Source: Candidatus Falkowbacteria bacterium RIFOXYC2_FULL_47_12 (GTDB lineage Bacteria > Patescibacteriota > Patescibacteriia > Patescibacteriales > XYC2-FULL-47-12). From it: 42,277 nt of DNA. Positions 1 to 14,360 of this stretch are shown here, piece after piece. The position numbers were made by a program, and so were the translations under genes. Under the pieces are notes generated by a model. It made no database searches. It was given only the letters and a program-made list of their open reading frames with translations, and was not told the origin of the DNA. Each line of letters starts with the position of its first letter. Position 1 is the first letter of the stretch. Location: the NCBI GenBank assembly GCA_001778285.1, contig MFGL01000020.1:36881-79157 (forward strand), given 5' to 3'.

Positions 1-440
1 AAAATAGTCTCCAGATGCCCCAACTTCTGCTTTAGCAAATGTCCCCAGCTTGACGCCAAGGTAGCTTGAAACAGTTCATTCCGAGTTTGTTCCTCATAGT
101 CGGTATTGATTTTTATCTGAATGTAAGAAAAGACGGCCAGCACGATTGCCTTTCCAATAAACATAGCGCAAATAAAAAGCAATAAATATACCAGGTTAAA
201 ATCAACGTGCGCTATAGCAAAAGCTTTGCGAATGACGCGAGAGATGAAATCACTGCCCTGCTCGCCGCCGGTGATGAACGAAAACAGAGGAATGATGGCG
301 TTGATGCCTACGCCTTCCAAAAGACCGCCGACAAAGCCAAGCAGCGTTAAAACAACTATTTGCCAGCGGTAGCAGCCAAACGCGCGCCGGGAAAGGCTGA
401 TAATGTCATGAATTCTATTATCGGTAATGATAATTCGCAT
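1..440 (-). CDS. ABC exporter, N-terminal transmembrane domain (partial; the 3' end runs off the left edge)
   Basis: My own minus-strand translation from ATG 438-440 reads MRIIITDNRIHDIISLSRRAFGCYRWQIVVLTLLGFVGGLLEGVGINAIIP... and stays open to position 1. The N-terminus resembles MsbA-type ABC membrane domains. It is absent from the ORF track because it is truncated. Confidence 0.55.
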   Translation of the reverse strand, partial: MRIIITDNRIHDIISLSRRAFGCYRWQIVVLTLLGFVGGLLEGVGINAIIPLFSFITGGEQGSDFISRVIRKAFAIAHVDFNLVYLLLFICAMFIGKAIVLAVFSYIQIKINTDYEEQTRNELFQATLASSWGHLLKQKLGHLETI

Positions 441-452
441 AGTCTGTATTTA

Positions 453-2033
453 TTACCAAGAAGCGTCCCAATCACCGACTATATCGGTTACATCAATAAA
501 TTTATAACGGGTCTTATTGGCGGAAACGGAGTCAGAGAAATAATTCCTGTCTTCGAGCAACGGCAAATTTGTTCCGAAGTATGTATTGAAAATAACCCGA
601 AACGAATTGACCGGCGTCATGGTATCATAGAGATGGCTGTCGCCGCCATTGGGCAAATAAAGCGCGTTAAAATTACGCATCCGTTCGCTATAAAGATGAT
701 TATTGGCGGTATCTTCGCCGGCGGTTGACCAGGAGCCATGATCGCTCTGGATTATAATAATCGGCGGCGTTTTTGACTTGGCTAAAATCTGATTTACGGT
801 AACTTCCACTTTTTTATTAAGAAAAGTTACCTGATCCGCATAGCGCTGTTTTATGTCCGGCCCCCAGCCACCAATATCCTCTGGCTTGAGGCGAAAAGCG
901 GTACCAGCTACATTTTCGCCATTAGGACCGAAGATAAAAGGCGGATGGGGCGAAAGTATATGGGCAAAAACAAATTTCGGCCCAACGATTTTATTAAATT
1001 CCGGCATATTACCCAACTGGTCAAATGTGTAAAGTATCCGCTCGCGGTAATCCCCTAATATATAAGAATGAATTGGTGGGTACAAAAGTCCGACGCGCAA
1101 CAACGAACTGTTAACAATTAGCATGGTAAGTTCGTTAAATTTTCCGCCTTGTAGCTGGACATCAGCGTACGGGTTTGAACTGGTCGCTCCCCAGATTGAC
1201 CGGAAAGTAATATACTTATAACCTTGGCTGCGTAAAAACTGCCAGACCTTATTGTTTTCAATCAGTTGGGTAGTGGGTTCAAAATCTTTATCCTGGCTCG
1301 CCGGTTCATCTGCCAAATAATTTAAATACTCCATATTGAGCGATGAGGCCAATGACAGTTGGGTAAATGCAAAATTACTAGTACTTTTATCAACTAAATA
1401 AAAACCTTTACCATGAAGATAGGAAAGAAAGGCACTGTTATCATAGTTAAATAGATTTTGCAGAGTATGGAAATTAGCATAGCCATCTAAAATAATATAA
1501 TAAATATCCGGCTTGGCGGCGGCCAATTTATCAGGGGAAACTTCCGCTGTCGGCGGCAAATTGGCTGGCTGGCCATTATCATTAAAAACATGAGGCACTA
1601 CGGTTATGGCTGACGTAAGTACCAGTACCAGCGCCACCATATTTAAAAACTGCTGCAATGCTTTTAAGGGGCGGCGAGTAAAAAATATGAAAGCCGTGCC
1701 GGCTAAAAATACAACAACATATTCCGATAAAAGATAACGGGCCCGGCCAATTTCTATATTCCAAACAAAAACGCCGACTAATGCATCATAAATATAACCA
1801 TAAGACCAGAAAAGCAACAAGCAGAATGATGTCATAATTGCGGCTTTGACTGTGCTTTTGCACAAAATCCGCATTAATAGAAGAATAACGGCCGTGGCTG
1901 AAATTGTCAGGCCGAGTGGTGCAAAAATATCAGATACCTTGAGTTCCGTCGGATTTTGCGCCAAAAAAAACATGAATGGAAAAATCGCCAATAATACAGG
2001 GTGGAAAATTTTGGTTAACCGGGTAAAAATCAT
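453..2033 (-). CDS. Membrane-anchored sulfatase/LtaS-type enzyme (alkaline phosphatase superfamily)
   Basis: 526 aa. A multi-span hydrophobic N-terminus is followed by a sulfatase-like domain (IYYIILDGY, IIIIQSDHGSW). ATG 2031-2033 overlaps the upstream stop (ATGA). Confidence 0.7.
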   Translation of the reverse strand: MIFTRLTKIFHPVLLAIFPFMFFLAQNPTELKVSDIFAPLGLTISATAVILLLMRILCKSTVKAAIMTSFCLLLFWSYGYIYDALVGVFVWNIEIGRARYLLSEYVVVFLAGTAFIFFTRRPLKALQQFLNMVALVLVLTSAITVVPHVFNDNGQPANLPPTAEVSPDKLAAAKPDIYYIILDGYANFHTLQNLFNYDNSAFLSYLHGKGFYLVDKSTSNFAFTQLSLASSLNMEYLNYLADEPASQDKDFEPTTQLIENNKVWQFLRSQGYKYITFRSIWGATSSNPYADVQLQGGKFNELTMLIVNSSLLRVGLLYPPIHSYILGDYRERILYTFDQLGNMPEFNKIVGPKFVFAHILSPHPPFIFGPNGENVAGTAFRLKPEDIGGWGPDIKQRYADQVTFLNKKVEVTVNQILAKSKTPPIIIIQSDHGSWSTAGEDTANNHLYSERMRNFNALYLPNGGDSHLYDTMTPVNSFRVIFNTYFGTNLPLLEDRNYFSDSVSANKTRYKFIDVTDIVGDWDASW

Positions 2034-3415
2034 AGTCTTTGCATTAAATAAAGCGTTCGCTCGGAACCAACAATAGATTCCTGCGCCGCAATAGTAAAAT
2101 AATTTTTAAACTCCCGTTCAAACGCGTTTTTGTTGTAATCGGGAAATATATCCGGCCGAGTAACAAGCAGCTTTTGCGCTTGGGAGTCTGATTTTGGGAC
2201 AAATTCAATAATCAGCTGTCTGGCAATTTTACTAAAAAATGAGGCAATGTGGCCAAGCGGCAAATTATTGGAAATAGCCAAGTGATGTACTAGCGCCAGC
2301 GCCAGCGCGCAATCAGCCGGGCCACGCTTGATGAGAGAGTCACGCTCTTCATTGCTCCAGCCGAAATTCGGACTAGGGTTGGTGATATCAATGAGTAAGG
2401 GCAGAAGATGCTTGGTCTGGTCGTGCCGCAGACGCAGATAATTTTTTTCCACTGACGCTGGGTCATAATCAAACGAGACAGTAAGCCGACCGCTGCCACT
2501 GGCTAAACGGCTGAAAGTGCCGTCGTTGGCGCCCACATCCCAAACTTTTTTAGCTCCACTTTTCTCTAAAAATTCTGTAACCAGACGCTTCTTATGCGCA
2601 AAAGATTCATCTGAATAATTTGTAGCCGTGTAATATTCAGCCCATTCAGTGCCGGCTGGCTGCCAGCGCAAACGCCGCACCAGGGACTCTAAATTATCAA
2701 TCAAGCCCAAAAGCGAGGTCTTGCCCATTGAATAACGAGCTATGTTGGCTGATTTACCGGCAAAGTGCGCTTGGCTTTTCGCGTGCAAATGAATATGCGA
2801 AAGCAATCCGAATGAAGCGTAGGTGCGAACAGGCAAAAGCTTACTGGCTAAATTCAAAGGAATGCCGTCTATATAAATTCTAAACCACTGATTAAGACGT
2901 ATATCCACATAACTCATGATAGCCAAAGGAGCCAAAAAATGCTGGCAAAATTGGCGATAAGCGATCCAAGGCGTTCCGGGAATATATTGTTCAAACGAAA
3001 GCGTATCAATCATAATGGGTTGGCCGTCCAGAAATTGAATATTGTAGGCACTGGCATCTTTGAGTATTAAACCGTGCTCCAGTGCGCTTTTTTGAATAGA
3101 CAGCGTCAATAGAGCCGCGTCCTTTAACTGACTAAAACTCCATTCAAAAGGGTAGGAAATAAAAGGAACCATGTTTGGCTGAATGACTTTGTATGTACTG
3201 TCCTGTTGTAATGATTCTGTCAGCGGCAATTCTTTATGTTCAATCAGCCGTCCGGAGGAAACGAGTACGTTGTACAAACCAGACGTCATGAGCGCATCGT
3301 AATGTTTTTGATAAATTTTATTTACCTGGCGACGCAATTGTCCGCTTTCCTGGTCAATATACATAAATCCGCTCGGATCACGGAACGAACTGGAATGGAT
3401 GCTAAAACTACGCAT
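2030..3415 (-). CDS. Class I SAM-dependent methyltransferase with an N-terminal accessory domain (NoeA-like)
   Basis: 461 aa with SAM motif I VWDVGANDGTFS. The N-terminal FRDPSGF region resembles NoeA-type methyltransferases. ATG at 3413-3415. Confidence 0.65.
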   Translation of the reverse strand: MRSFSIHSSSFRDPSGFMYIDQESGQLRRQVNKIYQKHYDALMTSGLYNVLVSSGRLIEHKELPLTESLQQDSTYKVIQPNMVPFISYPFEWSFSQLKDAALLTLSIQKSALEHGLILKDASAYNIQFLDGQPIMIDTLSFEQYIPGTPWIAYRQFCQHFLAPLAIMSYVDIRLNQWFRIYIDGIPLNLASKLLPVRTYASFGLLSHIHLHAKSQAHFAGKSANIARYSMGKTSLLGLIDNLESLVRRLRWQPAGTEWAEYYTATNYSDESFAHKKRLVTEFLEKSGAKKVWDVGANDGTFSRLASGSGRLTVSFDYDPASVEKNYLRLRHDQTKHLLPLLIDITNPSPNFGWSNEERDSLIKRGPADCALALALVHHLAISNNLPLGHIASFFSKIARQLIIEFVPKSDSQAQKLLVTRPDIFPDYNKNAFEREFKNYFTIAAQESIVGSERTLYLMQRL

Positions 3416-3439
3416 GCAAATAGTGATAATAATAAGTAT

Positions 3440-3703
3440 CTATTTCTGCTCTAAAGACTTTTCGGATTCTTCGGCTGCCGACGGCGTTGGCGCAATTTTT
3501 GCCTTACGGCCGCGGCTCAACATTAATCGCAGGCGCTGCCAATATACCTTAACCATAAAAATGCCGCCAGCGATAAATGCAATCGCAAGCTGGATAAGAT
3601 AGCTGCCGGTACCGGCGTCCAAATACGCATAAACGTTATGAGGAACAGCCAGGGCATATACGACTATAATCAGAATAAAAACGTAAACGTTGTAACTTGC
3701 CAT
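3440..3703 (-). CDS. Small membrane protein (hypothetical)
   Basis: 87 aa with two hydrophobic segments flanking a YLDAGTGSY motif and a basic C-terminal tail. It fills an otherwise empty 330-nt gap and starts at an ATG, but I saw no clear SD. Confidence 0.45.
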   Translation of the reverse strand: MASYNVYVFILIIVVYALAVPHNVYAYLDAGTGSYLIQLAIAFIAGGIFMVKVYWQRLRLMLSRGRKAKIAPTPSAAEESEKSLEQK

Positions 3704-3747
3704 ACGAAATATATTAATAAGTAAAGGGCGGACTGTCTGCTATTATA

Positions 3748-4497
3748 TCATATTGCCGCAAAACCGTTATTGTTTCGGGTAATCATGCGCTCGGCAATGG
3801 CACGCTCATCGGGCGTGTCAATTTCCACCCACTGCGGATAGCCCAGATCTACCATGGCGACAGCGCCGCGACGGGCGGCATACGCCAAAATCGCTTCTTC
3901 CACGTGCGTCTGTTGCGGGTTGCCCTGTGCAAGAACCTCGGTAGCGCTGGCAAAAAATGCCGGTACGATTTTTTCCGGGCAGTACAATATGCTGTTGAAA
4001 TAGTACTCATAATCCGTCAGCCCCTTGGCCATAGCAACTAGATGATTGTGCTGGTCAACTTTTACCACCATATCAAGCTGTACGTCATCCGATTCGTCGT
4101 CAGTACCGAATATTTTTATCTGATCGTCAAGGTGCCCTCTGATTTTTTTAGCAATATCTGCGTGGTAAATATAGTCGCCGTCGTATGAAAGAAAGCCGCC
4201 GGTAATTTCCGGCTGCGCTTTCATTAAGCTTACCATGCGCTGCGTCGTACGGTACTCCCTGTTTTCAACCATCACGACTTTTTTATCAATGGCAATAACC
4301 GCAGCGGCCAGCTGGTCAAACAAATAACCTCCCACTACCACGATTTTTGCCGGATTCAGCGCGCGCGCAAATGCCAATGAATACTCAATAATCGGCTTGC
4401 CTGCCACCAACGTCAGGGCTTTTGGCTGATCTTTTGTTAAATCACCTAAGCGCGTACCCATACCGGCGGCTAAAATTATTACGGTTAATTCTTTCAT
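3748..4497 (-). CDS. Nucleotidyltransferase (LicC / IPCT / sugar-1-phosphate NTase-like)
   Basis: 249 aa with the N-terminal signature VIILAAGMGTRLG...PKAL of GT-A fold NTP transferases. Confidence 0.8.
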   Translation of the reverse strand: MKELTVIILAAGMGTRLGDLTKDQPKALTLVAGKPIIEYSLAFARALNPAKIVVVGGYLFDQLAAAVIAIDKKVVMVENREYRTTQRMVSLMKAQPEITGGFLSYDGDYIYHADIAKKIRGHLDDQIKIFGTDDESDDVQLDMVVKVDQHNHLVAMAKGLTDYEYYFNSILYCPEKIVPAFFASATEVLAQGNPQQTHVEEAILAYAARRGAVAMVDLGYPQWVEIDTPDERAIAERMITRNNNGFAAI

Positions 4498-4513
4498 ATT
4501 GATTACTTGATGC

Positions 4514-6382
4514 TTAGTAGCTAAGTTCTAAGGCACGGCTAATTAATTCCGGAGGACACGGAATGCCGAATTCGCCCTTGATTTTCCAAACCCTCCCTAT
4601 ATACTCTAACAATACCATTCTCATGTCAGTGGTCCGGGTTTTTTTGTTATAACGCAAAGATTCTAAAATCACATCACGTCCTATGGTCGGTGGAATCTGA
4701 TACGGTAGATTATATTTTTTAAAAATATCTTCATGCGCCTTGACCGTTTCCGGCGGCGTTACTTGCATGAGATGCGCTAACTCCGCAGAAACGCGCATAC
4801 CAATAGCAATGGCCTGGCCGTGAGTATATTGAAAGTTAGATAAAAACTCAATTGCATGGCCAACTTCATGACCGTATTGCAAAATCATCGCCCGCTGGTC
4901 TTCAAACATGTCTTCGTGCATTAACTCTATTTTTAATTTTATAGTATCGGAAATAACTCGGGTAATAAAACCAACATCCTGCAGATTACCGTCGTAACCC
5001 AGCAAATAATTAAACAGTTCTTTACTCTGGCCAACGGCGTGTTTTATAGCCTCTGCCAAACCATCACGCACCAGCGCATCCGGCATAGGAATTGCCGGGT
5101 CAATGACTACCATTAATGGCTGGTAGTAACTGCCGACTAGATTCTTGCCCTTTTGTCCGTTGATTCCTTGTTTCAAACTAACGGACACGTCCAGCATGCT
5201 CATTAATGTTGTCGGCAAGTGAATCAAGCCGATGCCGCGATATAGGGTAGATGCCAAAAAACCCGACAGATTAGCCACCACTCCCCCTCCTAAGGCAAAA
5301 ATAATTGATTGTTCGTCAATGCCCAAGGCGATGATTTTTTCGGCTAAATTATTATAAACTTCCATGCTTTTGGCTGACTCATCGGCCGGCACTACCAATT
5401 TTGTTACTTTATAACCGGCTTCTTTTAACTGCGCCTCCACGGCTTCGCCTAAAATAACATTAACGTTGGCATCGGTAATGAGAATATGATGGGAAGCGGT
5501 GCGCTCCGGCGCCATTAATCTAATCCGGGAAAGTTTACTAATGATGCCCGGCTCAAAAATAATATCGGTTGTTTGCTCCCGGCGATATCTAAAAGCAAAA
5601 GCAGGGGCGACTGATTTGAGATTTCCGACCTGGACATTAGTGTGTCGCCTCGACAAATGCTGGCTGCGCAAAAACATCTCCGCCCGCATTAATGTCACCG
5701 GAGTATTAATGTCAAACCAAGTTGTTTCCGGCATCTGGGTCAACCGAATAAAACCTCGTTTGTTTAAATGATCCAAGATTTCCGCAAATGACATTTCAGC
5801 AGACGCACCCTGCAAGACATCGGCTAATTTGGCTAAACCGGCCTTGGTAAAATAATACACGCCGGCGTTGAAAGCGTTATAATCAGGCATGTCCTCGCCT
5901 CCAAAAACAGCCTGACCGAATACGCTGGTTTTGACCGTCATACCGGCGCCGCAAAATCTGTTAGCGGCGATATTTTTGTCTATCATAACCTCAATGTCAT
6001 CTTTTTTAGTGAACCACTTGAAAGGATTGTCTTGAAAAATCAAATCGCAGGAAGTAAGAAAGCAATCGTCAGCCACCGCTTCCACAACCGCTTGCAATGA
6101 ATTGACTAAACTAAAGCCGGTGCCACGCCTGTCTATGAAAATTAATTCCGCGCTGCTCATGTTTTGCAGAACGCTTTTCACTTCAGATGCGTAATTATCA
6201 ACCGCGATATAGATTTTGGTTACCCCTGCTTCCAACAGCCTCTCAATTTGGTACATAATTAACTGTTTGCCAAACGCCAAAACTAACGGCTTAGCAACGT
6301 TAAGCTGATTCAGCCTCTGCCCCTTTCCGCCGGCTAATATCACGCCGACCGTTGTTTGATTGGAATACGATGCGCTTGACAT
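4514..6382 (-). CDS. Fusion protein: N-terminal nucleotidyltransferase + C-terminal 3-dehydroquinate-synthase-family sugar phosphate cyclase
   Basis: 622 aa. The N-terminus carries GVILAGGKGQRL. The C-terminus carries DHQS-family motifs: LGGGVVANLSGF, HLPTTLMSMLDVSVSLKQGIN, GKNLVGSYYQP, GLAEAIKHA, RAMILQYGHEVGHAIE, HGQAIAIGM and YNKK. Confidence 0.85.
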   Translation of the reverse strand: MSSASYSNQTTVGVILAGGKGQRLNQLNVAKPLVLAFGKQLIMYQIERLLEAGVTKIYIAVDNYASEVKSVLQNMSSAELIFIDRRGTGFSLVNSLQAVVEAVADDCFLTSCDLIFQDNPFKWFTKKDDIEVMIDKNIAANRFCGAGMTVKTSVFGQAVFGGEDMPDYNAFNAGVYYFTKAGLAKLADVLQGASAEMSFAEILDHLNKRGFIRLTQMPETTWFDINTPVTLMRAEMFLRSQHLSRRHTNVQVGNLKSVAPAFAFRYRREQTTDIIFEPGIISKLSRIRLMAPERTASHHILITDANVNVILGEAVEAQLKEAGYKVTKLVVPADESAKSMEVYNNLAEKIIALGIDEQSIIFALGGGVVANLSGFLASTLYRGIGLIHLPTTLMSMLDVSVSLKQGINGQKGKNLVGSYYQPLMVVIDPAIPMPDALVRDGLAEAIKHAVGQSKELFNYLLGYDGNLQDVGFITRVISDTIKLKIELMHEDMFEDQRAMILQYGHEVGHAIEFLSNFQYTHGQAIAIGMRVSAELAHLMQVTPPETVKAHEDIFKKYNLPYQIPPTIGRDVILESLRYNKKTRTTDMRMVLLEYIGRVWKIKGEFGIPCPPELISRALELSY

Positions 6383-6387
6383 AAAAA

Positions 6388-7146
6388 TTAAGATAATATT
6401 GTTTGCTCAAAACGTTTGGTTAAACCGCTGACATACAATACCTGCCGGACAAAATGGAACGAAAATATGAAACAAAATCCGGCCATGAACAGCCACACAA
6501 AAACATCCAGACGGTTAAATAATGCGCACAGCAGTAAGGGAAACACCATGCCAACCGAACTGAAAATGTTACGATTAATGAAAAAAGATAACCGTCGCCG
6601 CCAGGTCTGTCGGACTTGCGGCCGGGATGCGCCAGCTGAGGACATTGCCGGTTCCAGTCCCAAATACTGCTTTAACCCTAAAAAACGGAATTCTAAAAAC
6701 CTAATCCATAGCTTAAAAATAGTGGCGAAATAGCCGACGTAGATAATAGACGCGCCGTATCCGGCTCTACATAAGCCAATGGTTAAGGGGATGAAAAGCA
6801 AGCCGTACTGAATGTCGTGGCTGACCGGCTCCACGTACGCGCCGGCACGGGTTTTGTTGCCCTTTAAACGCGCGATTTCTCCATCGCAGGCGTCAAAAAT
6901 AATAGAGAAATAAATAAGCGCCACGCCCGCCAAATTGAACCAGTAATCGTTAAAAATAAACAAAGAAATGCCGCTGATAAAAATCAAAACGCTGATAACG
7001 GTAATCTGATTAGGCGTGAGCGGTGTTCGTGCCAAAACGCGCGTCAGGTAAATTGACCAAAAGCGCACGGTACGGCCGACGTACGTTTCGTGTCCGCCTT
7101 CCGGCGCGCTTGCCTGCAACTTTTGTCGCCACTCCCTAGTGCTCAT
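6388..7146 (-). CDS. CDP-alcohol phosphatidyltransferase family membrane protein
   Basis: Motif FDACDGEIARLKGNKTRAGAYVEPVSHD in a polytopic protein. I chose the start MSTREW (ATG 7144-7146) because of the AGGTGA SD at 7154-7159 with a 7-nt spacer. The ORF-track extension to 7251 overlaps the kinase gene. Confidence 0.85.
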   Translation of the reverse strand: MSTREWRQKLQASAPEGGHETYVGRTVRFWSIYLTRVLARTPLTPNQITVISVLIFISGISLFIFNDYWFNLAGVALIYFSIIFDACDGEIARLKGNKTRAGAYVEPVSHDIQYGLLFIPLTIGLCRAGYGASIIYVGYFATIFKLWIRFLEFRFLGLKQYLGLEPAMSSAGASRPQVRQTWRRRLSFFINRNIFSSVGMVFPLLLCALFNRLDVFVWLFMAGFCFIFSFHFVRQVLYVSGLTKRFEQTILS

Positions 7147-7153
7147 GCTGGTA

Positions 7154-8092
7154 TCACCTGTCATATGTATTAAATAATTGATAAAAATGCGACGGAGATA
7201 TTTTTTTGAAATCTTGGTACACTTGATAGAAGTTAGTGGTGATAAAATCAAAATATTTTTTTGACGTCCTTCCGTTCACGTACATGTAAAAATCCATAAA
7301 GATATGACTTAAAAAAGCAAACCCAACAACTTGGTACAGCTCACCTTGTTCACGTGGAGAAAGGGAACGATTTGCAACATACCCATTATAAACTTCCCGC
7401 GCTGTTCGTATGTTAAAGTCCTTTCCCTGCGCTCCAAACCAAACCATACTCTTTGCCAAATCAAGTAACCAGGGGCCGACATATGCATTGTCAAAGTCAA
7501 TCACGCCGCTTAAATTTCCTTTCTCAAATAATACATTACTCGGTTTAACGTCAACATGGATTGGGCCGGTTGGCAGCTTGGAGCTTACTTGATGATCTAA
7601 AATTTCTTCTTTTATTTGTAGTAACAGTGCCGGCCGCGGCGTTTTTTTTGCCAGACAAAAATTATACACTCTCTTAATTTTGACAGTTGGGAAATCGTAG
7701 AACTTTTCTCTTGCGCCAGAAAAACGAAATCCCCCGCCCTGTGCATGAAACTTGGCCAGAAACTCCCCTACCTGAAATAACTGCCGACGGTTAAAAATTT
7801 TTAAATTTCTGCCGGGAATGTACTGATAAATAATAGCGTACTTTCCGTCTATCCTAAAAATCATCTTGCCATTGTACGTCATTATATTGGGTACCGGCAA
7901 TGTCTTAATATAATCCAACAAGGCTATATCGGCTTTTATCTGTTGCAAAGGTTTACGGCGATATATTCTTAGAATAGATGTCCCATCTCGGGTGTCTACC
8001 CGGTAACTTTCATTAACCGCCCCGCCGCGGTATTTTTTTATCTTTACCGGCTGGCTGCCTGGCCACCATTTTTTTATTTCTGCTGTGTGCAT
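7154..8092 (-). CDS. APH / choline-kinase / homoserine-kinase-II fold small-molecule kinase
   Basis: Catalytic loop IHVDVKPSNVLF and metal-binding motif VIDFDNA. ATG 8090-8092 (MHTAEIKK) lies just after the upstream stop at 8095. Confidence 0.8.
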   Translation of the reverse strand: MHTAEIKKWWPGSQPVKIKKYRGGAVNESYRVDTRDGTSILRIYRRKPLQQIKADIALLDYIKTLPVPNIMTYNGKMIFRIDGKYAIIYQYIPGRNLKIFNRRQLFQVGEFLAKFHAQGGGFRFSGAREKFYDFPTVKIKRVYNFCLAKKTPRPALLLQIKEEILDHQVSSKLPTGPIHVDVKPSNVLFEKGNLSGVIDFDNAYVGPWLLDLAKSMVWFGAQGKDFNIRTAREVYNGYVANRSLSPREQGELYQVVGFAFLSHIFMDFYMYVNGRTSKKYFDFITTNFYQVYQDFKKISPSHFYQLFNTYDR

Positions 8093-8094
8093 AT

Positions 8095-9123
8095 TTATCG
8101 CTCCATTACCACCACGCTTTTTAAAACCTCCCCCGACCAACTGGCGGCAAATGCTTGTTCAATTTCAGCCAGAGGATAAATATGTTCAGGTGAAATAAAC
8201 TCCCCCGCGTTAAGCTTGCCCTGTTCAATCAAAGCGATAATATCGTCGTGCACTGAAGCCTCATCGTAGTGTTCGCCACTATAAAAAGAAAAATCACCTT
8301 TCACCAACGAGGTATTGATATGGTAGTCCAAAACATTATCCAGACCGTAAACGCCTAGCTTAACACCGCTTTTTGTTAACGGCAAAACTTTGTTCAGGGA
8401 ACTGCTATCGCCAATGGCGTCAATCACCACATCGGCACTTCCCCATCCCAACGCTTTCATTGCAGCCGGCTGGTTCACTTCCCGGTAAGACACAAAGCTG
8501 TTAGCGCCGCTCCGCCTAAAATGTTCACTGCGTTTGGGACTGCCAATAACCAATGTCTCCACACCCAAGTTGTGGCTATGTTTGACAAATGCCAAAGCGT
8601 TTGCGCCGGAACCAATAATAACAACTTTGTCTGTTGCGGCTACCTGCAGACGCTTTAAAAATGAATGCGTCTCACGCCAGGTGATAATCAGAGTACTTTC
8701 CGCCGGCGAAAAATGCGTTGGTAATACGCGCTGAACGGTATAGCGGCGCCACTCGGTCTCCGGTAAGCCATCGGCGCGCATGGCCTGCCAGTCTGTCGCC
8801 ACGCCTTTTTGCGCAAACCCGCCCCAGTGCAAATGAATGCCTGAATCTTCTGGTAGCTTATTAAAAATGCGGGTGACCAGATCGCCAATGTTTAAATTTT
8901 TTACTTTGGGGCCGCAGGCAGTCACACGGCCAATGGCTTCGTGGCCCAAAATTGTGGGAAACTGTACTTTAAAGTATGGATCGTTATGAAACAGATGCCG
9001 ATCGGTGCCGCTACATACGGAGCAGGCCAAAATATCGCACAGCACGTCATAACCCCCGACGACTGGGTCGGGAACTTCACGGACAACTATTTTTCGTGGT
9101 GTTTCTAAAACGGCGGCTTTCAT
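8095..9123 (-). CDS. Zn-dependent medium-chain dehydrogenase/reductase
   Basis: ACSVCSGTDRH and GHEAIGRV catalytic-Zn motifs plus a GSGANA Rossmann motif. There is no structural-Zn Cys loop. ATG 9121-9123 overlaps the GT4 stop (ATGA). The track start at 9132 is a TTG. Confidence 0.85.
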   Translation of the reverse strand: MKAAVLETPRKIVVREVPDPVVGGYDVLCDILACSVCSGTDRHLFHNDPYFKVQFPTILGHEAIGRVTACGPKVKNLNIGDLVTRIFNKLPEDSGIHLHWGGFAQKGVATDWQAMRADGLPETEWRRYTVQRVLPTHFSPAESTLIITWRETHSFLKRLQVAATDKVVIIGSGANALAFVKHSHNLGVETLVIGSPKRSEHFRRSGANSFVSYREVNQPAAMKALGWGSADVVIDAIGDSSSLNKVLPLTKSGVKLGVYGLDNVLDYHINTSLVKGDFSFYSGEHYDEASVHDDIIALIEQGKLNAGEFISPEHIYPLAEIEQAFAASWSGEVLKSVVVMER

Positions 9124-10283
9124 GCTTGACAATTTAATAGTAAAGAACTATCACCATCAATAAATTTAACAATCTTTTTTGCGCGTTCCTGCCAGTCGTA
9201 ACCGCGCGCTTGCCCAGACACCGCCTGCGCCAGCGTGCGGGCAAGAACTCGGTTATTTAAAAGCATATTTATTTTCTCCGCCAAATCCGCCGAATTATCC
9301 GGCTCGCATAACAACGCGTTTTCGTTATTTTTTAAATACCCCTGAAAACTCTCTACATTGCTCGCCACAATCGGCACATTGCTGGCCATATACTCAAACA
9401 ATTTTATCGGCGTCGTATACTTGGCCGAACGCTCTTCTCGCGCGGTATTGGGCAAAACCAGCACGTCAGCTGATTTTATAAACTTGATAATTTCAGCATG
9501 CGGGATAAATTCATGAACGCGCACGTTGGTCAGTTTTTTTTCTAAAATGTAACTTTCAACTTTTTGTCTGTCCTGTGGTATGCCGCCGATTAAAATAATC
9601 ATGCCTTTGATAAATTTCGCCGCATCAAGCAATGTGTAGACTCCCTTCCAGGCGTAGAAATGGCCAACATAAAGCACCGCCGGCTCATCCGGTTTGAAGC
9701 CAAATGTATCTGTCCATACATTTTTATCGGCAGAAACATTTGCAAAGGCCTCAATATCCACGCCGTTGGGAGCTACGATATATGAATGTGCGTCTACGCC
9801 TTCCCTCTGATACAGATTTTCCAAAGCCTGCGCCACAATCACTTTTTTTGGAATTGTTTTGATAAACCAACGATACAGCCAACGCCAGCGTTTTTTAGGC
9901 TCATGATCTTCAAAAATGATATTTTTACCAACCAATGAAAGCCAAAAACAAATGGTGATATCGCGTGAATAAATGGCATCAGCCCGACTAAACAATACGT
10001 AAGCAAACGCCAGAAATCCGAAAGTCAGGCGCTGTAGAATAAAGTATGCGTGCTGCCAGTACGTTTCCAACCAGCCACAAACATTGGGAATGTACGTTAT
10101 CTCAAGAGGTACGGCAAGGTTATAATAATTCTCCAGAGAATCGGTAATGGTATTGCGCCGGCGAGGGGCGACCAATGTTATCTCTACCCCCTGTTTTTGC
10201 AACGCCTCAATGGTTTTGATAATTTGCCAGCCGTGAGCTTTTTCAGTAGGCAGGCGCGAATTGGCAAGATACAAGAGGCGCAT
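9120..10283 (-). CDS. GT4-family (GT-B) glycosyltransferase
   Basis: The likely start is MRLLYLANS (ATG 10281-10283), 1 nt after the stop of the HTH gene. The C-terminal part has ...TPIKLFEYMASNVPIVAS, typical of GT4. Confidence 0.85.
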   Translation of the reverse strand: MRLLYLANSRLPTEKAHGWQIIKTIEALQKQGVEITLVAPRRRNTITDSLENYYNLAVPLEITYIPNVCGWLETYWQHAYFILQRLTFGFLAFAYVLFSRADAIYSRDITICFWLSLVGKNIIFEDHEPKKRWRWLYRWFIKTIPKKVIVAQALENLYQREGVDAHSYIVAPNGVDIEAFANVSADKNVWTDTFGFKPDEPAVLYVGHFYAWKGVYTLLDAAKFIKGMIILIGGIPQDRQKVESYILEKKLTNVRVHEFIPHAEIIKFIKSADVLVLPNTAREERSAKYTTPIKLFEYMASNVPIVASNVESFQGYLKNNENALLCEPDNSADLAEKINMLLNNRVLARTLAQAVSGQARGYDWQERAKKIVKFIDGDSSLLLNCQA

Positions 10284-10284
10284 A

Positions 10285-10545
10285 CTAAACGGGCCATTTA
10301 TTAATAACATCAACCGCTCGTTTTTTTATTTTCAAGTACATTTTTTCTGATTTTTTCTCAAGTTCAGGGGAAATAAGGCGCAATATTTCCTTACCCATAA
10401 TGCGGTATTGTCCTCCGACTTTATTTGCTTTGAGAATGCCTCTTTTAAGCAACCGTTTTATAGTACTTTCGCTAATTTTAAGCAAATTTTGAGCCTCGGC
10501 AGTCGTATATACAGCATTCTCTTTTATTTCTTCAGACATGTGCAT
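10285..10545 (-). CDS. Excisionase/MerR-type helix-turn-helix (HTH_17-like) DNA-binding protein
   Basis: 86 aa. YTTAEAQNLLKISESTIKRLLKRGILKANKVGGQYRI matches the excisionase-family HTH pattern. ATG at 10543-10545, with an alternative at 10537-10539. Confidence 0.7.
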   Translation of the reverse strand: MHMSEEIKENAVYTTAEAQNLLKISESTIKRLLKRGILKANKVGGQYRIMGKEILRLISPELEKKSEKMYLKIKKRAVDVINKWPV

Positions 10546-10567
10546 AACGCAAATAGATTACATGTAT

Positions 10568-10596
10568 ATTGTACCAAAGGTATCAAAAGGTGTCAA
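10568..10596 (-). promoter_or_regulatory. Sigma70-like promoter for the HTH gene and downstream genes
   Basis: On the minus strand there is TTGACA (plus 10591-10596), an exact 17-nt spacer, then TACAAT (plus 10568-10573). This sits 22 nt upstream of the ATG at 10545. Confidence 0.55.
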
Positions 10597-10608
10597 AAGG
10601 TGTCAAAA
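10579..10608. repeat. Three tandem 10-bp direct repeats (GGTATCAAAA GGTGTCAAAA GGTGTCAAAA)
   Basis: Read directly from the sequence. The repeats are spaced one helical turn apart, and each carries a -35-like TTGACA or TTGATA on the minus strand. Confidence 0.9.
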
Positions 10609-10613
10609 CAAAA

Positions 10614-11792
10614 TTACCAGGCTATTTCTGCCGGAGTCGTTTGATGGTCAGCTACTTTTTTCGCAAGCTCTTCCTGCATTTCGTTACAATTTTTAAATAT
10701 GCCCTCGGGACACGTTTCTTTCCATACATCCATAAGCATGAGGGCTACTCCGGTTTCGGTTGGGTGTTCACCGTCCAGCATATACACATCTTGTATGCCT
10801 ACAGACTTTAAATCGGAAAAATCAAAATAGTGAATATCATGGCTTGCAAATACCACGGCAACGTTTTGTTTGAATGACTGCAAAAAAGACGCATAGTGAG
10901 AATTACTCATAGCCGCATACACTTCGGTTGAAAACGGTGGGGCAATACCGACAACGGTAATACCGCGCGCCCGGGCGAGGGTTAAAAATTCATCCAAAAT
11001 AGCCGGCCCAGCCTCTGCAAACGAGCTGCCAAACGAAAACGGATCATACCCTTCACGCACCCGCTCAATAATCGGCGGCACTTCCCTGTCCACGTAGGTC
11101 ATATCACGGCGCATCTCTGAAATGTAGCCCGCGTATTGCCGGCTGCCGTCATTGCGGAAACCGTTGCCGTGTTCTATGGCATCAATACCTACCGCCCTTC
11201 CCCCGCCAAAAGGATCAATTCCTTTGATAAGGGTAAAAGCGTATGTGGGATGTTTAATGAGCCGGGACAAAACGTAGCGGCTGGCGTACAAATAGGCCCT
11301 CCAATTGTATACTTCTTCCGGTGCGGATAATGCGTCCGTAAATCCCCGATGCCGTAGATACTGGACATCAAACCACCACGTATCAATGCCGACTATTATA
11401 ACTTCCGGAGCGTATTCTTGAGGCAATGCATTTACAAAATCAACCAAATCCATAAGACTGCTGGCCATGCTGCCCGCATTATAAAAGACGCTGCCCTTGC
11501 CAAACATTTCTTTTCTTAATTCCAAAACGCGTGATGAACCAACCGCCAAAATCTCCGGCCGCTGCCGCATAACGCTTAAGTACTTGTACTTAACCGTCTC
11601 GCGTTCAATGATTTGGCGGGCAAAAACATATTCAGCACCGCCTTCGGCCTGTTTATCAACGACTCGTCTAAGCGGCTGGATTTCCCCCGCGTACACGGCG
11701 AAAAATATGGCCACGCCCGTTAACACGGCTACCGGCACTAAAAATAAAGAAAAAATTTTTACAAACATTTTAATGTCTGTGGAATATTTCAT
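10614..11792 (-). CDS. Membrane-anchored DltD/AlgJ-like SGNH-type O-acyltransferase partner
   Basis: 392 aa with an N-terminal TM anchor, a VGSSRV Ser motif near residue 85 and a LDGEHPT (D-x-x-H) motif near the C-terminus. It lies immediately downstream of the MBOAT gene. Confidence 0.55.
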   Translation of the reverse strand: MKYSTDIKMFVKIFSLFLVPVAVLTGVAIFFAVYAGEIQPLRRVVDKQAEGGAEYVFARQIIERETVKYKYLSVMRQRPEILAVGSSRVLELRKEMFGKGSVFYNAGSMASSLMDLVDFVNALPQEYAPEVIIVGIDTWWFDVQYLRHRGFTDALSAPEEVYNWRAYLYASRYVLSRLIKHPTYAFTLIKGIDPFGGGRAVGIDAIEHGNGFRNDGSRQYAGYISEMRRDMTYVDREVPPIIERVREGYDPFSFGSSFAEAGPAILDEFLTLARARGITVVGIAPPFSTEVYAAMSNSHYASFLQSFKQNVAVVFASHDIHYFDFSDLKSVGIQDVYMLDGEHPTETGVALMLMDVWKETCPEGIFKNCNEMQEELAKKVADHQTTPAEIAW

Positions 11793-11803
11793 GCCTTTAT
11801 CGC

Positions 11804-13237
11804 TTAAAATTGAAAATAAATAAACGGGTGATAGCTAAAATTTCCAAAAAATAATATTATGGCTAACAGTATGTAGTATGCCAGCCAACGCCCCCACCGC
11901 GGAATATTTTCAAGGTGCAAAGGGTGCGGCTGGCGACGCTGCCGCCACTCCACGACAAGCAAGCCCGCCACAATGGCCGTCTTTTTGACAAATACCGGTG
12001 AAAAAAAGATAGCCGCATTCGCAAATGATATGTTCTGAAAAATAGTCTGCAAAATATGTAAGGATTCTGTTAAAGATTGAGAGCGAAAAAATACCCAGCC
12101 TACGAGCACTAAAAGAAACGTGAGAATTATATTATGCGCATCGTGCCACTGCGCTTCTTCATGCGTAGCGGCTTTTTTTTCCTGCCTTCTGGCACTCAAA
12201 ATAGTAGGGATAAAACACAAACCGTGCATTGCCCCCCACGCTACGAAAGTCCAGTTTGCTCCGTGCCACAATCCACTGACAACAAAGGTAATAAAAATAT
12301 TTCTAAAATAGAGCCATTTGCTCTGCACGCGGCTCCCGCCCAGCGGAATGAATACATAGTCCCTGAACCAGGACGAGAGCGTGATGTGCCACCGCCGCCA
12401 AAACTCCGGAATGCTGCGGGCAAAATACGGGTAGCGGAAATTTTGACTCAAGCGGATGCCGAATAATTTTGCCGTACCGATGGCGATATCTGAGTAACCG
12501 GAAAAATCGCAATATATTTGAAACGCGAAAAAAAATGTTGCTGCGAAGAGCTGCGGACCGGAAGCAATAGCGGCATTGCCATAAACATATTGAACAATTT
12601 CTGCCAAATTGTCGGCAATAACAATTTTTTTAAAAAGGCCCCACAACATTTGGCGCATCCCATCGTAAGCGTCGGATAACACGAAGGTGCGTGCGCAGCG
12701 AAACTGGACCAGCAAATCGGAAGCCCGTTCGATAGGTCCGGCAACCAGCTGTGGAAAAAAAGAAACAAACGTGAAGAATTCGACAATATTACGCGTGGGC
12801 TGTATTTTACCTTGGTACACTTCTATGGTGTAACTCATCGTCTGGAACGTATAAAAACTGATGCCCACCGGCAGAATAATATACAACGTACCTAGTGAAA
12901 CTTCGGGCACACCAAAAAAAATAAGCGCGTCCTGCAACGAACTTGCAAAAAAATTAAAGTATTTAAACAATCCCAAAATTGACAAATTAATGCCAATGCT
13001 CAACCACAGCCAATGCTTTTTATGTCGTAACTGGCTCGCAGAACTGATTTTTTGGCCAATAATGTAATCAGCCAGACTGGAAATAAAAATGAGTGACAAA
13101 AAACGCCAATCCCACCACCCATAGAAAACGTAACTGCAAAAGAGCAGAAACACATTCTGCCCTTTCTTTGATAATCTCCAGTAGATGAGAAACGTGAGCG
13201 CGAGAAAAATGAGGAAGGTGGGAGAATTGAAGATCAC
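11804..13237 (-). CDS. MBOAT-family membrane-bound O-acyltransferase (AlgI/DltB-like)
   Basis: Conserved WRRWHITLSSWFRDYVFIPLGGSR His motif in a polytopic protein. The start is uncertain. I favour GTG 13235-13237 (giving MIFNSPTFLIF), which lies downstream of the aminotransferase stop at 13249. Confidence 0.8.
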   Translation of the reverse strand: MIFNSPTFLIFLALTFLIYWRLSKKGQNVFLLFCSYVFYGWWDWRFLSLIFISSLADYIIGQKISSASQLRHKKHWLWLSIGINLSILGLFKYFNFFASSLQDALIFFGVPEVSLGTLYIILPVGISFYTFQTMSYTIEVYQGKIQPTRNIVEFFTFVSFFPQLVAGPIERASDLLVQFRCARTFVLSDAYDGMRQMLWGLFKKIVIADNLAEIVQYVYGNAAIASGPQLFAATFFFAFQIYCDFSGYSDIAIGTAKLFGIRLSQNFRYPYFARSIPEFWRRWHITLSSWFRDYVFIPLGGSRVQSKWLYFRNIFITFVVSGLWHGANWTFVAWGAMHGLCFIPTILSARRQEKKAATHEEAQWHDAHNIILTFLLVLVGWVFFRSQSLTESLHILQTIFQNISFANAAIFFSPVFVKKTAIVAGLLVVEWRQRRQPHPLHLENIPRWGRWLAYYILLAIILFFGNFSYHPFIYFQF

Positions 13238-13248
13238 GACAGTAAAAT

Positions 13249-14355
13249 TTAAAGACGATAAGCGTTGCAGGCCGCGGCAATGTAGTTGGCTTGTTCCAAG
13301 GTCATAGTCGGATATATCGGCAGGCTGATAACGCTGGCATGCAACGCCTCGCTGACGGGGTAAATCTGCGTATCCCAATCAGAAAACGCCTCTTGCTTAT
13401 GCGGCGCAACCGGGTAATGAATAACGGTTTGAATTTCGCGGTCTTGTAAGTATTGCTGAAAATGATCGCGATTTTCGGTGCGAACCACAAACAAATGCCA
13501 CACGTGCGATTCGCGATGCAATGCCGGTTGAGGCAAGACAAGCGCGGCATTGGTAATGTGCTGCAAATAAAACTCCGCCACTGTCCGGCGTTTTTCATTT
13601 TCTCCATCCAAATATTTCAACTTTACGGATAGCACTGCCGCTTGCAAGGCATCCAGGCGGCTGTTAACGCCCTGGTATTGGTTATAATATTTTTTGTGAC
13701 TGCCGTAGTTGCGCAATGCCCGGACTATCTCGGCCAAAGCCGGATCATTGGTAGTTACGGCTCCGCCATCGCCCAGAGCGCCGAGATTTTTACCAGGGTA
13801 AAAGCTAAATCCGCCGGCGTCTCCGAGTGAGCCAGTTCTTTTGTCTTGCAATATTGCCCCATGCGCTTGGGCGCAATCTTCAATGATTTTTAAGCCATGT
13901 GCGTTAGCAATTTTCTGCATTCTCTGTGAATACCCCACCTGCCCGTAGAGATGAACCACCATGATCGCCTTTGTTTTTACAGTGATAATATCCTCCAGTC
14001 TATTCACGTCTATGTTATAGGTGCTGGTGTCCGGTTCAACCAGTACCGGTTTTAAACGATTTTCAGTAATAGCTAAGATGGTAGCGATATACGTGTTGGC
14101 CGGAACTAAAATCTCATCACCCTCATGAAGTATATCCAACTCTTTGTAGGCGCGAATAATTAATGTCAGCGCGTCCAAACCGTTGCCGCTACCTATGGCG
14201 TGCTTAACGCCGCAGTAACGCGTGAACTCGGCTTCAAACTGTTCCACTTCTTTTCCCAGTATATATTGGCCGGAATCAAACACACGCGTTATAGCCGCCA
14301 TAATTTCCTCGCGGTGCGCGGCGTTAATAGCGCGCAAGTCTAAAAAAGGAATCAT
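13249..14355 (-). CDS. DegT/DnrJ/EryC1/StrS-family PLP-dependent sugar aminotransferase
   Basis: [18 protein letters not shown]...[16 protein letters not shown] and [16 protein letters not shown] (PLP lysine). ATG at 14353-14355. Confidence 0.9.
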
Positions 14356-14360
14356 ATATT

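Follow-up and report, generated by a model that had tools for sequence, protein, structure and literature searches.

A six-gene block within a surface-glycan cluster

We analysed a stretch of 42,277 nucleotides (hereafter the window) of contig MFGL01000020.1 from Candidatus Falkowbacteria bacterium RIFOXYC2_FULL_47_12, a member of the Patescibacteria, or candidate phyla radiation (CPR); that genome encodes a protein with 100% identity to the 622-aa protein described below. Six open reading frames (ORFs) lie in a row on the minus strand at 3748-10283 and encode a stand-alone nucleotidyltransferase (NTase), an NTase fused to a sugar-phosphate cyclase (SPC) of the 3-dehydroquinate synthase (DHQS) type, a CDP-alcohol phosphotransferase, an APH-fold kinase, a zinc-dependent medium-chain dehydrogenase/reductase (Zn-MDR or Zn-ADH) and a family 4 glycosyltransferase (GT4). 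An earlier note on this DNA had described six adjoining, tightly coupled genes with these domains, and both descriptions hold: the ORFs lie where it placed them, and Pfam profiles recover the expected family in every gene (NTase, NTase::DHQS, CDP-OH_P_transf, APH, ADH_N/ADH_zinc and GT4). The mechanically called ORFs start at upstream TTG codons; because we used internal ATG starts instead, the long ORF overlaps vanish and the spacing of the six genes becomes -4 to +16 nt. The dehydrogenase ATG (9123) forms an ATGA overlap with the GT4 stop codon, the kinase ATG (8092) follows the dehydrogenase after 2 nt, the transferase may start at ATG 7164 or 7146, and the fusion protein (ATG 6382) and stand-alone NTase (ATG 4497) follow gaps of 5 and 16 nt. 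The GC content of the block is the same as that of its flanks.

The remainder of the window is one large (40-kb) surface-glycan cluster surrounding the block, with genes for DegT aminotransferases, a C-methyltransferase, GT2 and GT4 enzymes, AsnB, a UDP-GlcNAc 2-epimerase, sugar dehydratases and epimerases, an MBOAT protein and a TagF-like protein. The block itself is more than a chance arrangement, since the same genes occur in the same order in unrelated metagenomes (loci numbered with an L below). Judged from the sequences, it is on balance probable that the six genes form the core of a single operon, whose product, a carbocyclic polyol phosphate activated with a nucleotide, is passed to a membrane transferase for use in the cell envelope.

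Table 1. Genes, domains and sites of the six-gene block and its immediate flanks; positions are those of the window
Feature	Position	Strand	Details
Stand-alone NTase	3748-4497	minus	249 aa; NTP_transf_3, 1.5e-10
NTase::cyclase fusion	4514-6382	minus	622 aa; NTP_transferase 9.9e-14 (aa 13-240)
NTase::cyclase fusion, cyclase part			aa 329-581; DHQ_synthase 2.7e-30; DHQS_C 9.4e-28
N-terminal NTase domain of fusion	5648-6346	minus	aa 13-245; proposed cyclitol-phosphate cytidylyltransferase
C-terminal sugar-phosphate cyclase domain of fusion	4583-5557	minus	aa 276-600; 'Gln268' clade
CDP-alcohol phosphotransferase	ORF 6388-7251; 6388-7164 from ATG	minus	~258 aa; CDP-OH_P_transf 2.5e-10
APH-fold small-molecule kinase	ORF 7154-8140; 7154-8092 from ATG	minus	312 aa; APH 2.2e-29
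Zn medium-chain dehydrogenase/reductase	ORF 8095-9132; 8095-9123 from ATG	minus	342 aa; ADH_N 2.4e-10 and ADH_zinc_N
GT4 glycosyltransferase	ORF 9120-10313; 9120-10283 from ATG	minus	387 aa; Glycos_transf_1 1.1e-25 and Glyco_transf_4
HTH_17 DNA-binding protein	10285-10545	minus	86 aa; Pfam HTH_17, 7e-12
Promoter-like site, TTGACA-17-TACAAT, extended TG	10568-10596	minus	consensus match only
Small protein with two predicted transmembrane segments	3440-3703	minus	87 aa; segments from hydropathy
461-aa protein, class I SAM methyltransferase C-terminal half	2030-3415	minus	AlphaFold2 (AF2) model, Foldseek
526-aa membrane protein, alkaline-phosphatase-superfamily domain	453-2033	minus	AF2 model, PDB fold matches

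The fingerprint of the cyclase domain falls outside those of the known sugar-phosphate cyclase classes

The cyclase domain passes the Pfam cut-offs for DHQ_synthase (104.8 against 24.2 bits) and DHQS_C (97.4 against 27.6 bits). It scores 265 bits with the aroB equivalog model TIGR01357, under the cut-off of 305, and its closest solved relative in a PDB sequence search is BtrC, which belongs to the 2-deoxy-scyllo-inosose synthases (DOIS; 6.7e-43). Membership of the glycerol-1-phosphate dehydrogenase (G1PDH) or Fe-ADH group was ruled out, the G1PDH model scoring 22 bits against 265 for aroB. We aligned 65 members of the clade to which the domain belongs (the window protein and 64 relatives) with 20 DHQS sequences, comprising 7 named references and 13 AroB-type database hits, and with reference aminoDHQS, DOIS, EEVS, EVS, DDGS and EboD sequences; all references came from the supplement of PMC4426668, from which the class fingerprints were rebuilt, and active-site positions were read in A. 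nidulans DHQS numbering.

The metal (Zn) ligands E194, H271 and H287 and the phosphate-binding residues R130, K152, N162, H275 and K356 are kept in the window cyclase and in 65/65 clade members, and Lys250 is retained along with Lys356. Two other residues are altered: in the window protein Arg264, the ligand of the carboxylate of the DHQS substrate 3-deoxy-D-arabino-heptulosonate 7-phosphate (DAHP), is replaced by Ala, and Asn268 by Gln. Both positions are changed in every one of the 65 clade members and both are intact in all 20 DHQS. Position 264 is A, G, S or E across the clade and small (A, G or S) in most of it, while Gln268 is found in 63/65 members. This fingerprint matched none of the seven known SPC classes in the alignment with the reference sequences. 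The DOIS signature of Gly264, Glu268 (E243 in BtrC) and Asn356 is absent from the window cyclase, which has Gln at 268 and Lys at 356, and none of the EEVS, DDGS, EVS or EboD fingerprints (positions 250, 264, 267, 268, 275 and 356) fits it.

In a neighbour-joining tree the Gln268 sequences form a clade of their own with 98% bootstrap support, next to a DOIS clade with 100%. The two are sister groups at 72% in this tree, the only one computed, and the Gln268 clade is not nested within DOIS; EEVS, DDGS, EVS and EboD are placed elsewhere, away from it. Two traits are common to the Gln268 clade and DOIS only: GGGxxxN, with Asn for the Asp of the GGGxxxD NAD loop, and S-L-K-Q, which replaces G-G-K-T before the catalytic Lys152 region. 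By these residues and this placement the cyclase is not an ordinary AroB, which would have counted against the reading in the earlier note, and the Gln268 type is most likely a previously unrecognised SPC class, predicted here from sequence. Because the clade is sister to the glucose-6-phosphate-using DOIS and shares these traits with it, the substrate is, by analogy, probably a hexose 6-phosphate, with glucose 6-phosphate the probable one, and the product a C6 deoxy-inosose. We also considered a cyclase acting on the NDP-sugar made by its own NTase domain and rejected this from the established mechanism and our own reasoning: the aldol step of DHQS requires a free anomeric carbonyl.

Within the clade, residues 260, 264 and 267 fall into two sub-fingerprints, E-[A/G]-L, as in the window, and D-E-P, which set the window, L003, L087, L089 and L095 apart from L088, L091, L092, L097 and L099. 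The two may reflect different substrates or products. Cyclase domains related to the clade also occur, in internal or C-terminal position, in other multidomain proteins of 670-2653 aa (P0107, P0126, P0141, P0158, P0162, P0170 and P0176).

The transferase departs from the family signature

The transferase scores 41.4 bits with PF01066 (cut-off 22), has hydrophobic segments by hydropathy, and carries the motifs DACDGEIAR and, at aa 51, PNQIT, which fits P(D/N)xx(T/S). The CDP-alcohol phosphotransferase family is defined by D1xxD2GxxAR...GxxxD3xxxD4, a signature of eight 'absolutely conserved' residues in which D4 is the likely catalytic base, and changing D4 from Asp to Asn abolishes the activity of phosphatidylinositol-phosphate (PIP) synthase (PMC4634129). 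Six of the eight residues are kept in the window protein. Its signature reads D-x2-D-G-x2-A-R ... G-x3-E-x3-H, and in alignment A2 D4 is His in 5/5 orthologues (the window and four others) and D3 is Glu in 4/5; in the window protein these residues are His116 and Glu112. The invariant His may substitute for the D4 Asp. With D4 being His throughout and D3 mostly Glu, the protein is, on its residues, a distinct subfamily of CDP-alcohol phosphotransferases.

Equivalog scores place the transferase well below the phospholipid synthases (pgsA, 22 bits against a cut-off of 109; pssA, 24 against 107), so that by sequence it is neither PgsA nor PssA, either of which would have spoken against the earlier note's reading. 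The nearest solved relatives are Af2299 (1.2e-14) and IPCT/DIPPS (2.8e-8), followed by PIP synthases. A reading in which a shikimate AroB and an ordinary phospholipid synthase are housekeeping genes that have become neighbours by chance is scarcely credible: although aroB is the top-scoring NCBIfam model for the cyclase and homologues are publicly annotated '3-dehydroquinate synthase' (others '2-deoxy-scyllo-inosose synthase'), the sub-cut-off aroB score, the uniformly altered residues 264 and 268, the well-supported clade, the low pgsA and pssA scores and the retention of the gene set in twelve loci all speak against it.

A phosphatidylinositol-(PI-)like lipid anchor is a serious alternative to a glycan acceptor, though we hold it unlikely. 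Here the transferase would make a phosphatidyl-cyclitol, from CDP-cyclitol and diacylglycerol or from CDP-diacylglycerol and cyclitol phosphate, and the GT4 would glycosylate the head group as PimA does, giving a PIM-like lipoglycan anchor. The top NCBIfam matches of the transferase are indeed archaetidylinositol-phosphate synthase (archin_ph_syn, 1.9e-13) and PIP synthase (PIPSynth, 4.1e-10), but their scores of 51 and 40 bits are far under the respective cut-offs of 180 and 170. Moreover, Af2299 and DIPPS, the best solved relatives, use the soluble CDP-alcohol donors CDP-glycerol and CDP-inositol and process no lipids (PMC4634129). The surface-glycan context favours a lipid-linked glycan as acceptor.

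Two nucleotidyltransferases with different relatives

Both NTases carry a GxGxR motif. The IPCT/DIPPS equivalog model matches the NTase and transferase domains of the window at 2.4e-14, 6.5e-10 and 4.7e-9, far under its cut-off of 580; the first of these values is a full-domain alignment with the fused NTase, in which K31, D113 and D224 are invariant across 32 homologues. The stand-alone NTase is LicC/PntC/IPCT-like: a PDB search ranks LicC (3.8e-11) and the phosphonate cytidylyltransferase PntC (4.4e-10) highest, and its best NCBIfam model is the glucose-1-phosphate uridylyltransferase AglF. Among NTases encoded beside distant relatives of the transferase in soil metagenomes, 33/36 prefer the fused-type profile over the stand-alone type, with mean scores of 152 and 118 bits. 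Because of this preference, and because the three-gene loci described below have the fused NTase only, we infer from sequence that the fused domain performs the CDP-cyclitol step. A fused NTase would also be purposeless if a PI-like lipid were made by the CDP-diacylglycerol route.

The soil loci themselves (L100-L169; for example L110 581-3818 and L120 7477-10729) pair an NTase with a long ORF (~800 aa from stop to stop) that matches a distantly related CDP-alcohol transferase, and have no cyclase. They resemble IPCT/DIPPS and seem to be a system of their own, abundant and apparently uncharacterised.

All 12 full modules have the stand-alone NTase, in two of them (L003 and L087) as a fusion with a methyltransferase. 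It could provide the GT4 with an NDP-sugar, could make a second CDP-alcohol to be used by a transferase of the TagF-like or BFO_1060-like type, or could re-activate an intermediate resembling di-inositol-phosphate phosphate (DIPP). Putative phospho-alcohol transferases of the TagF-like/BFO_1060-like kind, candidate consumers of a second CDP-alcohol, are encoded in the window (24929-26158), in L087 (14243-15643), directly after the NTase::methyltransferase gene, and in L172 (15818-17197), three genes past the stand-alone NTase.

These features bear on another fate for the product, a soluble phosphodiester of the di-inositol-phosphate type, formed from CDP-cyclitol and a second alcohol phosphate (cyclitol phosphate or glycerol phosphate) and either kept as an osmolyte or re-activated at its remaining phosphate by the second NTase for another transferase. 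Such a scheme would explain two NTases with one kinase; the IPCT domain of IPCT/DIPPS can be aligned with each of the two NTases, the closest solved homologues of the transferase, DIPPS and Af2299, have soluble donors and acceptors, and the TagF-like/BFO_1060-like genes lie beside or near the module in three loci. We nevertheless regard it as improbable: the full modules are all in surface-glycan clusters rather than stress-response loci, the module showed no phosphatase gene, and the hosts, as inferred from record names only, are non-thermophilic environmental bacteria in which such solutes are not expected. Nor is the re-activation step known to have a precedent.

Kinase, dehydrogenase and glycosyltransferase

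The kinase scores 103.4 bits with Pfam APH (cut-off 23.2) and has the catalytic motifs HVDVKPSN (the HxDxxxxN loop) and IDFD (the DF[DG] metal site). Among family models it comes closest to type II homoserine kinase (ThrB_alt), but below the cut-offs (109 against 271 and 82 against 256 bits). The dehydrogenase shows the motifs CSVCSGTD and GHE. PDB searches with the kinase, dehydrogenase and GT4, and NCBIfam searches with the short-chain dehydrogenase/reductase (SDR) and PfkB partners found in relatives, returned generic matches only, and we therefore deduced no substrate for any of these five from their families. We propose that the Zn-dehydrogenase is a ketocyclitol reductase and the APH-fold protein a cyclitol kinase.

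The module is conserved from either search anchor

Homologues of the fusion protein are few: they form about 53 full-length clusters at 90% identity, and a search of 1.84 billion proteins gave 18 full-length representatives at 50%, along with about 50 representative clusters of unfused cyclases. Named sources are Falkowbacteria, the Parcubacteria and Patescibacteria groups, a Spirochaetes metagenome-assembled genome (MAG), Bradymonas sediminis and Lujinxingia litoralis; unfused members of the cyclase clade occur in a Taylorbacteria genome (CPR), Pandoraea sp. SD6-2 and Rhodopseudomonas palustris. A genome scan with peptide patterns of the fusion protein, which are shared with ordinary AroB, returned housekeeping aroB at 77/80 loci, and only L007-L009 were relevant.

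We define the full module as transferase, NTase::SPC, reductase (SDR or Zn-ADH), APH kinase and second NTase. It was found at 12 loci including the window, and these are divergent (35-60% identity). Starting from the fusion protein, L003, L172, L087, L088 and L089 have the full core, with proteins 37-59% identical to that of the window. In a second, independent search, metagenome contigs were searched with the transferase alignment and the matches annotated with our own profiles; 6/7 orthologous loci with enough flank (L091, L092, L093, L095, L097 and L099) have the core in the same order, the seventh (L096) having only a GT4 beside the transferase. All cyclase domains newly found in this way carry the Gln268 fingerprint. 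Transferase and fusion gene are thus co-conserved whichever of them is used as the anchor. On a Spirochaetes contig (L171) the fusion gene is accompanied by APH, Zn-ADH and NTase genes, after which the sequence breaks off.

The co-conservation of all six genes that the earlier note envisaged holds for the transferase, the NTase::cyclase, the APH kinase (12/12) and the second NTase, but not for the other two. Four loci (the window, L003, L172 and L093) have a Zn-ADH as reductase, and the other eight full modules an SDR, which in one of them (L092) is fused to the NTase::cyclase. The GT4 is not universal: six loci (the window, L003, L172, L091, L092 and L099) have it inside the module block, and in L095 and L088 it is found 1-3 kb upstream of the transferase, so that it is in or near 8/12 modules. 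Where it abuts the transferase gene (L091, L092 and L099) the adjacency recalls the mycobacterial pgsA1-pimA operon, and both this and the shared block in the other three loci are what a PI-like anchor would lead one to expect.

All full modules sit among glycosyltransferases, flippases, priming transferases or nonulosonate genes. A Wzx-type flippase gene lies within the L172 block, L087 has a priming transferase gene, and both L088 and L089 have nonulosonate genes. In L089 (12507-18186) three B12-binding radical SAM enzymes and a DegT-family aminotransferase are encoded right after the transferase, which suggests C-methylation and amination of the cyclitol, that is, an aminocyclitol variant.

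Simpler forms of the module also exist. Bradymonas sediminis (L001 10001-13688), a Myxococcales MAG (L007 10004-13451) and L170 (8001-11489) have three genes, NTase::cyclase, SDR and PfkB kinase. These loci are without a CDP-alcohol transferase and outside glycan clusters, and two-component sensor genes flank L170. Unfused Gln268 cyclases, annotated '2-deoxy-scyllo-inosose synthase', occur in ABC-transporter O-antigen clusters of R. palustris BisB18 (L005 8001-10096), with an SDR gene adjacent, and Pandoraea sp. SD6-2 (L006 8001-11270), with an SDR one gene away. No kinase gene was seen in these 17-kb loci, and the NTases, several kb off, resemble ordinary sugar-nucleotide genes. The arrangement suggests a cyclitol as O-antigen constituent or cap in both strains.

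Since the three-gene loci have no transferase, their NDP-cyclitol would have another consumer, which is one argument for a further reading of the window: that an NDP-carbasugar is used directly by the GT4, in the manner of GDP-valienol in validamycin and acarbose synthesis, and that the transferase serves some other substrate. The series of cyclase, kinase and NTase does parallel EEVS, AcbU/ValC and AcbR/ValB (PMC9200736). This reading is nonetheless very improbable, as the cyclase lies outside the C7 clade of EEVS, DDGS and EVS and no other module member is more tightly co-conserved with the fusion gene than the transferase. In addition, a saturated cyclitol is a poor pseudo-glycosyl donor. 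The pseudo-glycosyltransferases known to us are GT20- or GT5-like and none is a GT4.

Genes flanking the block

The closely packed block reaches beyond the span given in the earlier note; it continues upstream into an HTH_17 gene and downstream into three more ORFs. The HTH_17 gene is 1 nt upstream of the GT4 gene, occupies the same position in L003 and L172, and heads the L089 cluster. Beyond it, in a 68-nt gap that is the only sizeable one upstream of the block, lies a promoter-like site with 11/12 matches, the best of 34 sigma-70-like matches within 1-14500; from its sequence it is a candidate start of the transcription unit. Further upstream (10614-13378) are genes for an MBOAT protein (DltB/AlgI-like) and a conserved 392-aa single-pass membrane protein. 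In L003 (28-5798) their counterparts are followed by acyl carrier protein (ACP), ACP synthase, dehydratase and ketoreductase genes, which points to acylation of the same glycan.

Downstream, the three genes follow with gaps of -4 to 44 nt. The 87-aa protein is kept at the same position in L003, and L172 has a similar-sized ORF there with no family on record. The 461-aa protein had no Pfam or NCBIfam match, and PDB sequence searches with it and with the 526-aa protein found nothing. An AF2 model of the 461-aa protein (pLDDT 85) has as its best PDB fold the kinase-methyltransferase WbdD, over only ~200 columns in the methyltransferase half; kinase-like motifs in its N-terminal half (LKDASAYNIQF ... 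IDTLSF) were recognised by eye only. WbdD is an O-antigen chain terminator. Homologues of the 461-aa protein at least 59% identical to it occur across phyla (>8000 hits). The AF2 model of the 526-aa protein (pLDDT 86) has N-terminal transmembrane helices and an alkaline-phosphatase-superfamily domain, with the phosphoethanolamine transferases EptC, MCR-1 and EptA, plus sulfatases, as best PDB folds. The protein contains a DHG motif, has no sulfatase C/S-x-P-x-R motif, and belongs to a very large family.

The genes for the 461-aa and 526-aa proteins are paired on many unrelated contigs (Anaerolineales, Actinobacteria, Margulisbacteria, Bacteroidales and others). As only the three closest loci (the window, L003 and L172) link them to the module, while the remaining nine full modules lack them and the pair itself is far more widespread, we rejected them as general module members and treat them as neighbours, which may act on the module product. 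EptA/MCR-1-like enzymes take lipid phospho-head groups, and the presence of one after the module in these three loci would suit a PI-like anchor; the occurrence of this gene and its partner far beyond the module argues the other way.

A proposed pathway and the points against it

We propose the following pathway, each chemical step being read from family membership, residues and gene context. The cyclase domain of the 622-aa protein would convert a hexose 6-phosphate, most likely glucose 6-phosphate, to a deoxy-inosose with release of phosphate. The Zn-dehydrogenase, or an SDR in most relatives, would reduce the ketone to a deoxy-inositol, which the APH-fold kinase would phosphorylate to a cyclitol phosphate. 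The fused N-terminal NTase domain would then form CDP-cyclitol (or another NDP-cyclitol), and on the cytoplasmic side of the membrane the CDP-alcohol phosphotransferase would move the cyclitol phosphate to a hydroxyl acceptor, releasing CMP. The GT4 would add a sugar to the cyclitol or its carrier, and the product would join the surface glycoconjugate of the surrounding 40-kb cluster. The stand-alone NTase would supply another activated substrate, which could be an NDP-sugar used by the GT4 or a further CDP-alcohol used by a TagF-like transferase.

The activities that survive non-orthologous replacement are cyclase, ketoreductase (SDR or Zn-ADH), kinase (APH or PfkB) and NTase. These four are the minimum set for an NDP-cyclitol, and the three-gene loci carry exactly these activities. 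In Patescibacteria-type loci a membrane CDP-alcohol phosphotransferase is added, from which we argue that the nucleotide would be CDP and that the cyclitol phosphate is what is moved. The fuller proposal, that an eighth SPC class (Gln268) together with reductase, kinase, NTase and a His-variant transferase puts a deoxy-inositol-type phosphate on envelope glycans or lipids of Patescibacteria, is tentative, and we give it a little under an even chance.

Several points weigh against this proposal. There are two active-looking NTases and one kinase, which leaves the second NTase over. The substrate and product of the cyclase are assigned by analogy with the sister group; Glu243 of DOIS is implicated in phosphate elimination, and since Gln268 stands in its place the chemistry may differ. 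The transferase is without the D4 Asp that is the proposed catalytic base, and its kinship does not point to a glycan or lipid acceptor, since the closest solved homologues act on soluble ones. No GT4 adjoins the module in four of the twelve loci (L087, L089, L093 and L097). The substrates and products of all steps, finally, are predictions, as is the enzyme chemistry itself.

Comparison with known systems

In function, the Falkowbacteria module is most like IPCT/DIPPS, where an NTase makes a CDP-cyclitol and a CDP-alcohol phosphotransferase of the six-transmembrane type moves the cyclitol phosphate. It differs in drawing its cyclitol from a DHQS-type cyclase, a reductase and a kinase rather than from myo-inositol-1-phosphate synthase (MIPS), of which no family match was found among the window proteins scanned. 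Its NTase is fused to the cyclase and not to the transferase, D4 is His, a second NTase is present, and the context is a surface-glycan cluster.

The DOIS of 2-deoxystreptamine aminoglycoside pathways (BtrC, KanA, NemA, GntB and TbmA) share with the Gln268 cyclases their sister-clade position, the best PDB match, GGGxxxN, S-L-K-Q and a small residue 264. They are set apart by Glu268 and Asn356, where the module cyclase has Gln and Lys, and by the NTase fusion of the latter. The conserved core has no DOI aminotransferase, and its hosts (Patescibacteria, a Spirochaetes MAG, Bradymonadales and a Myxococcales MAG) are not antibiotic producers as those of DOIS are.

The GDP-valienol route (EEVS, ValC/AcbM/AcbU, ValB/AcbR and AcbL) has the same order of cyclase, redox enzyme, cyclitol kinase and NTase (PMC9200736). 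Unlike it, the module has a cyclase of another, non-C7 class, a kinase of another family and a CDP-alcohol phosphotransferase, and is without an OtsA- or GlgA-type pseudo-glycosyltransferase.

CDP-ribitol synthesis (TarI/TarJ, Bcs1) and LicA/LicC likewise provide a CDP-alcohol for the envelope, by pairing a cytidylyltransferase with a reductase or an NTase of the LicC type with a kinase. TarJ is a Zn-MDR reductase and Bcs1 an SDR reductase paired with a cytidylyltransferase. In the module, by contrast, the alcohol is proposed to be carbocyclic and to come from a cyclase, and the transferase is a CDP-alcohol phosphotransferase, not TagF or LicD.

The ebo cluster also couples a non-shikimate C6 sugar-phosphate cyclase, EboD, to an integral-membrane transferase (PMC12904256). 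EboD differs from the module cyclase in having a fingerprint (H250, S264, D268 and R356) and clade of its own, and ebo has neither a kinase nor an NTase, nor any chemistry of CDP-alcohols. In a 2026 review of cyclitol biosynthesis EboD is the newest cyclase class listed, and a Gln268 class goes unmentioned (PMC12904256). In the full-text literature searched, neither the NTase::cyclase fusion nor the gene set of the module is described, consistent with the earlier note's remark that no characterised pathway has this combination. The module most likely represents a CDP-alcohol pathway containing a new cyclase class and a new transferase subfamily.

Implications

Should the proposal prove true, the Gln268 proteins would constitute a new cyclase class with a simple sequence fingerprint, now misfiled under AroB and DOIS annotations, and the transferase a subfamily of CDP-alcohol phosphotransferases that breaks the 'absolutely conserved' signature. 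Simpler versions would then be an NDP-cyclitol module in Bradymonadales and Myxococcales and a cyclase with SDR in proteobacterial O-antigen clusters. Related modules are present in the cultured bacteria Bradymonas sediminis, Lujinxingia litoralis, Rhodopseudomonas palustris BisB18 and Pandoraea sp. SD6-2.

To our knowledge, non-shikimate DHQS-type cyclases have been described almost exclusively in antibiotic, sunscreen and ebo pathways. The Falkowbacteria module would be a cyclitol route in primary metabolism, providing an envelope building block in an uncultured lineage with reduced genomes: a teichoic-acid-like or PI-like modification whose polyol would be built by a DHQS-fold enzyme instead of MIPS.

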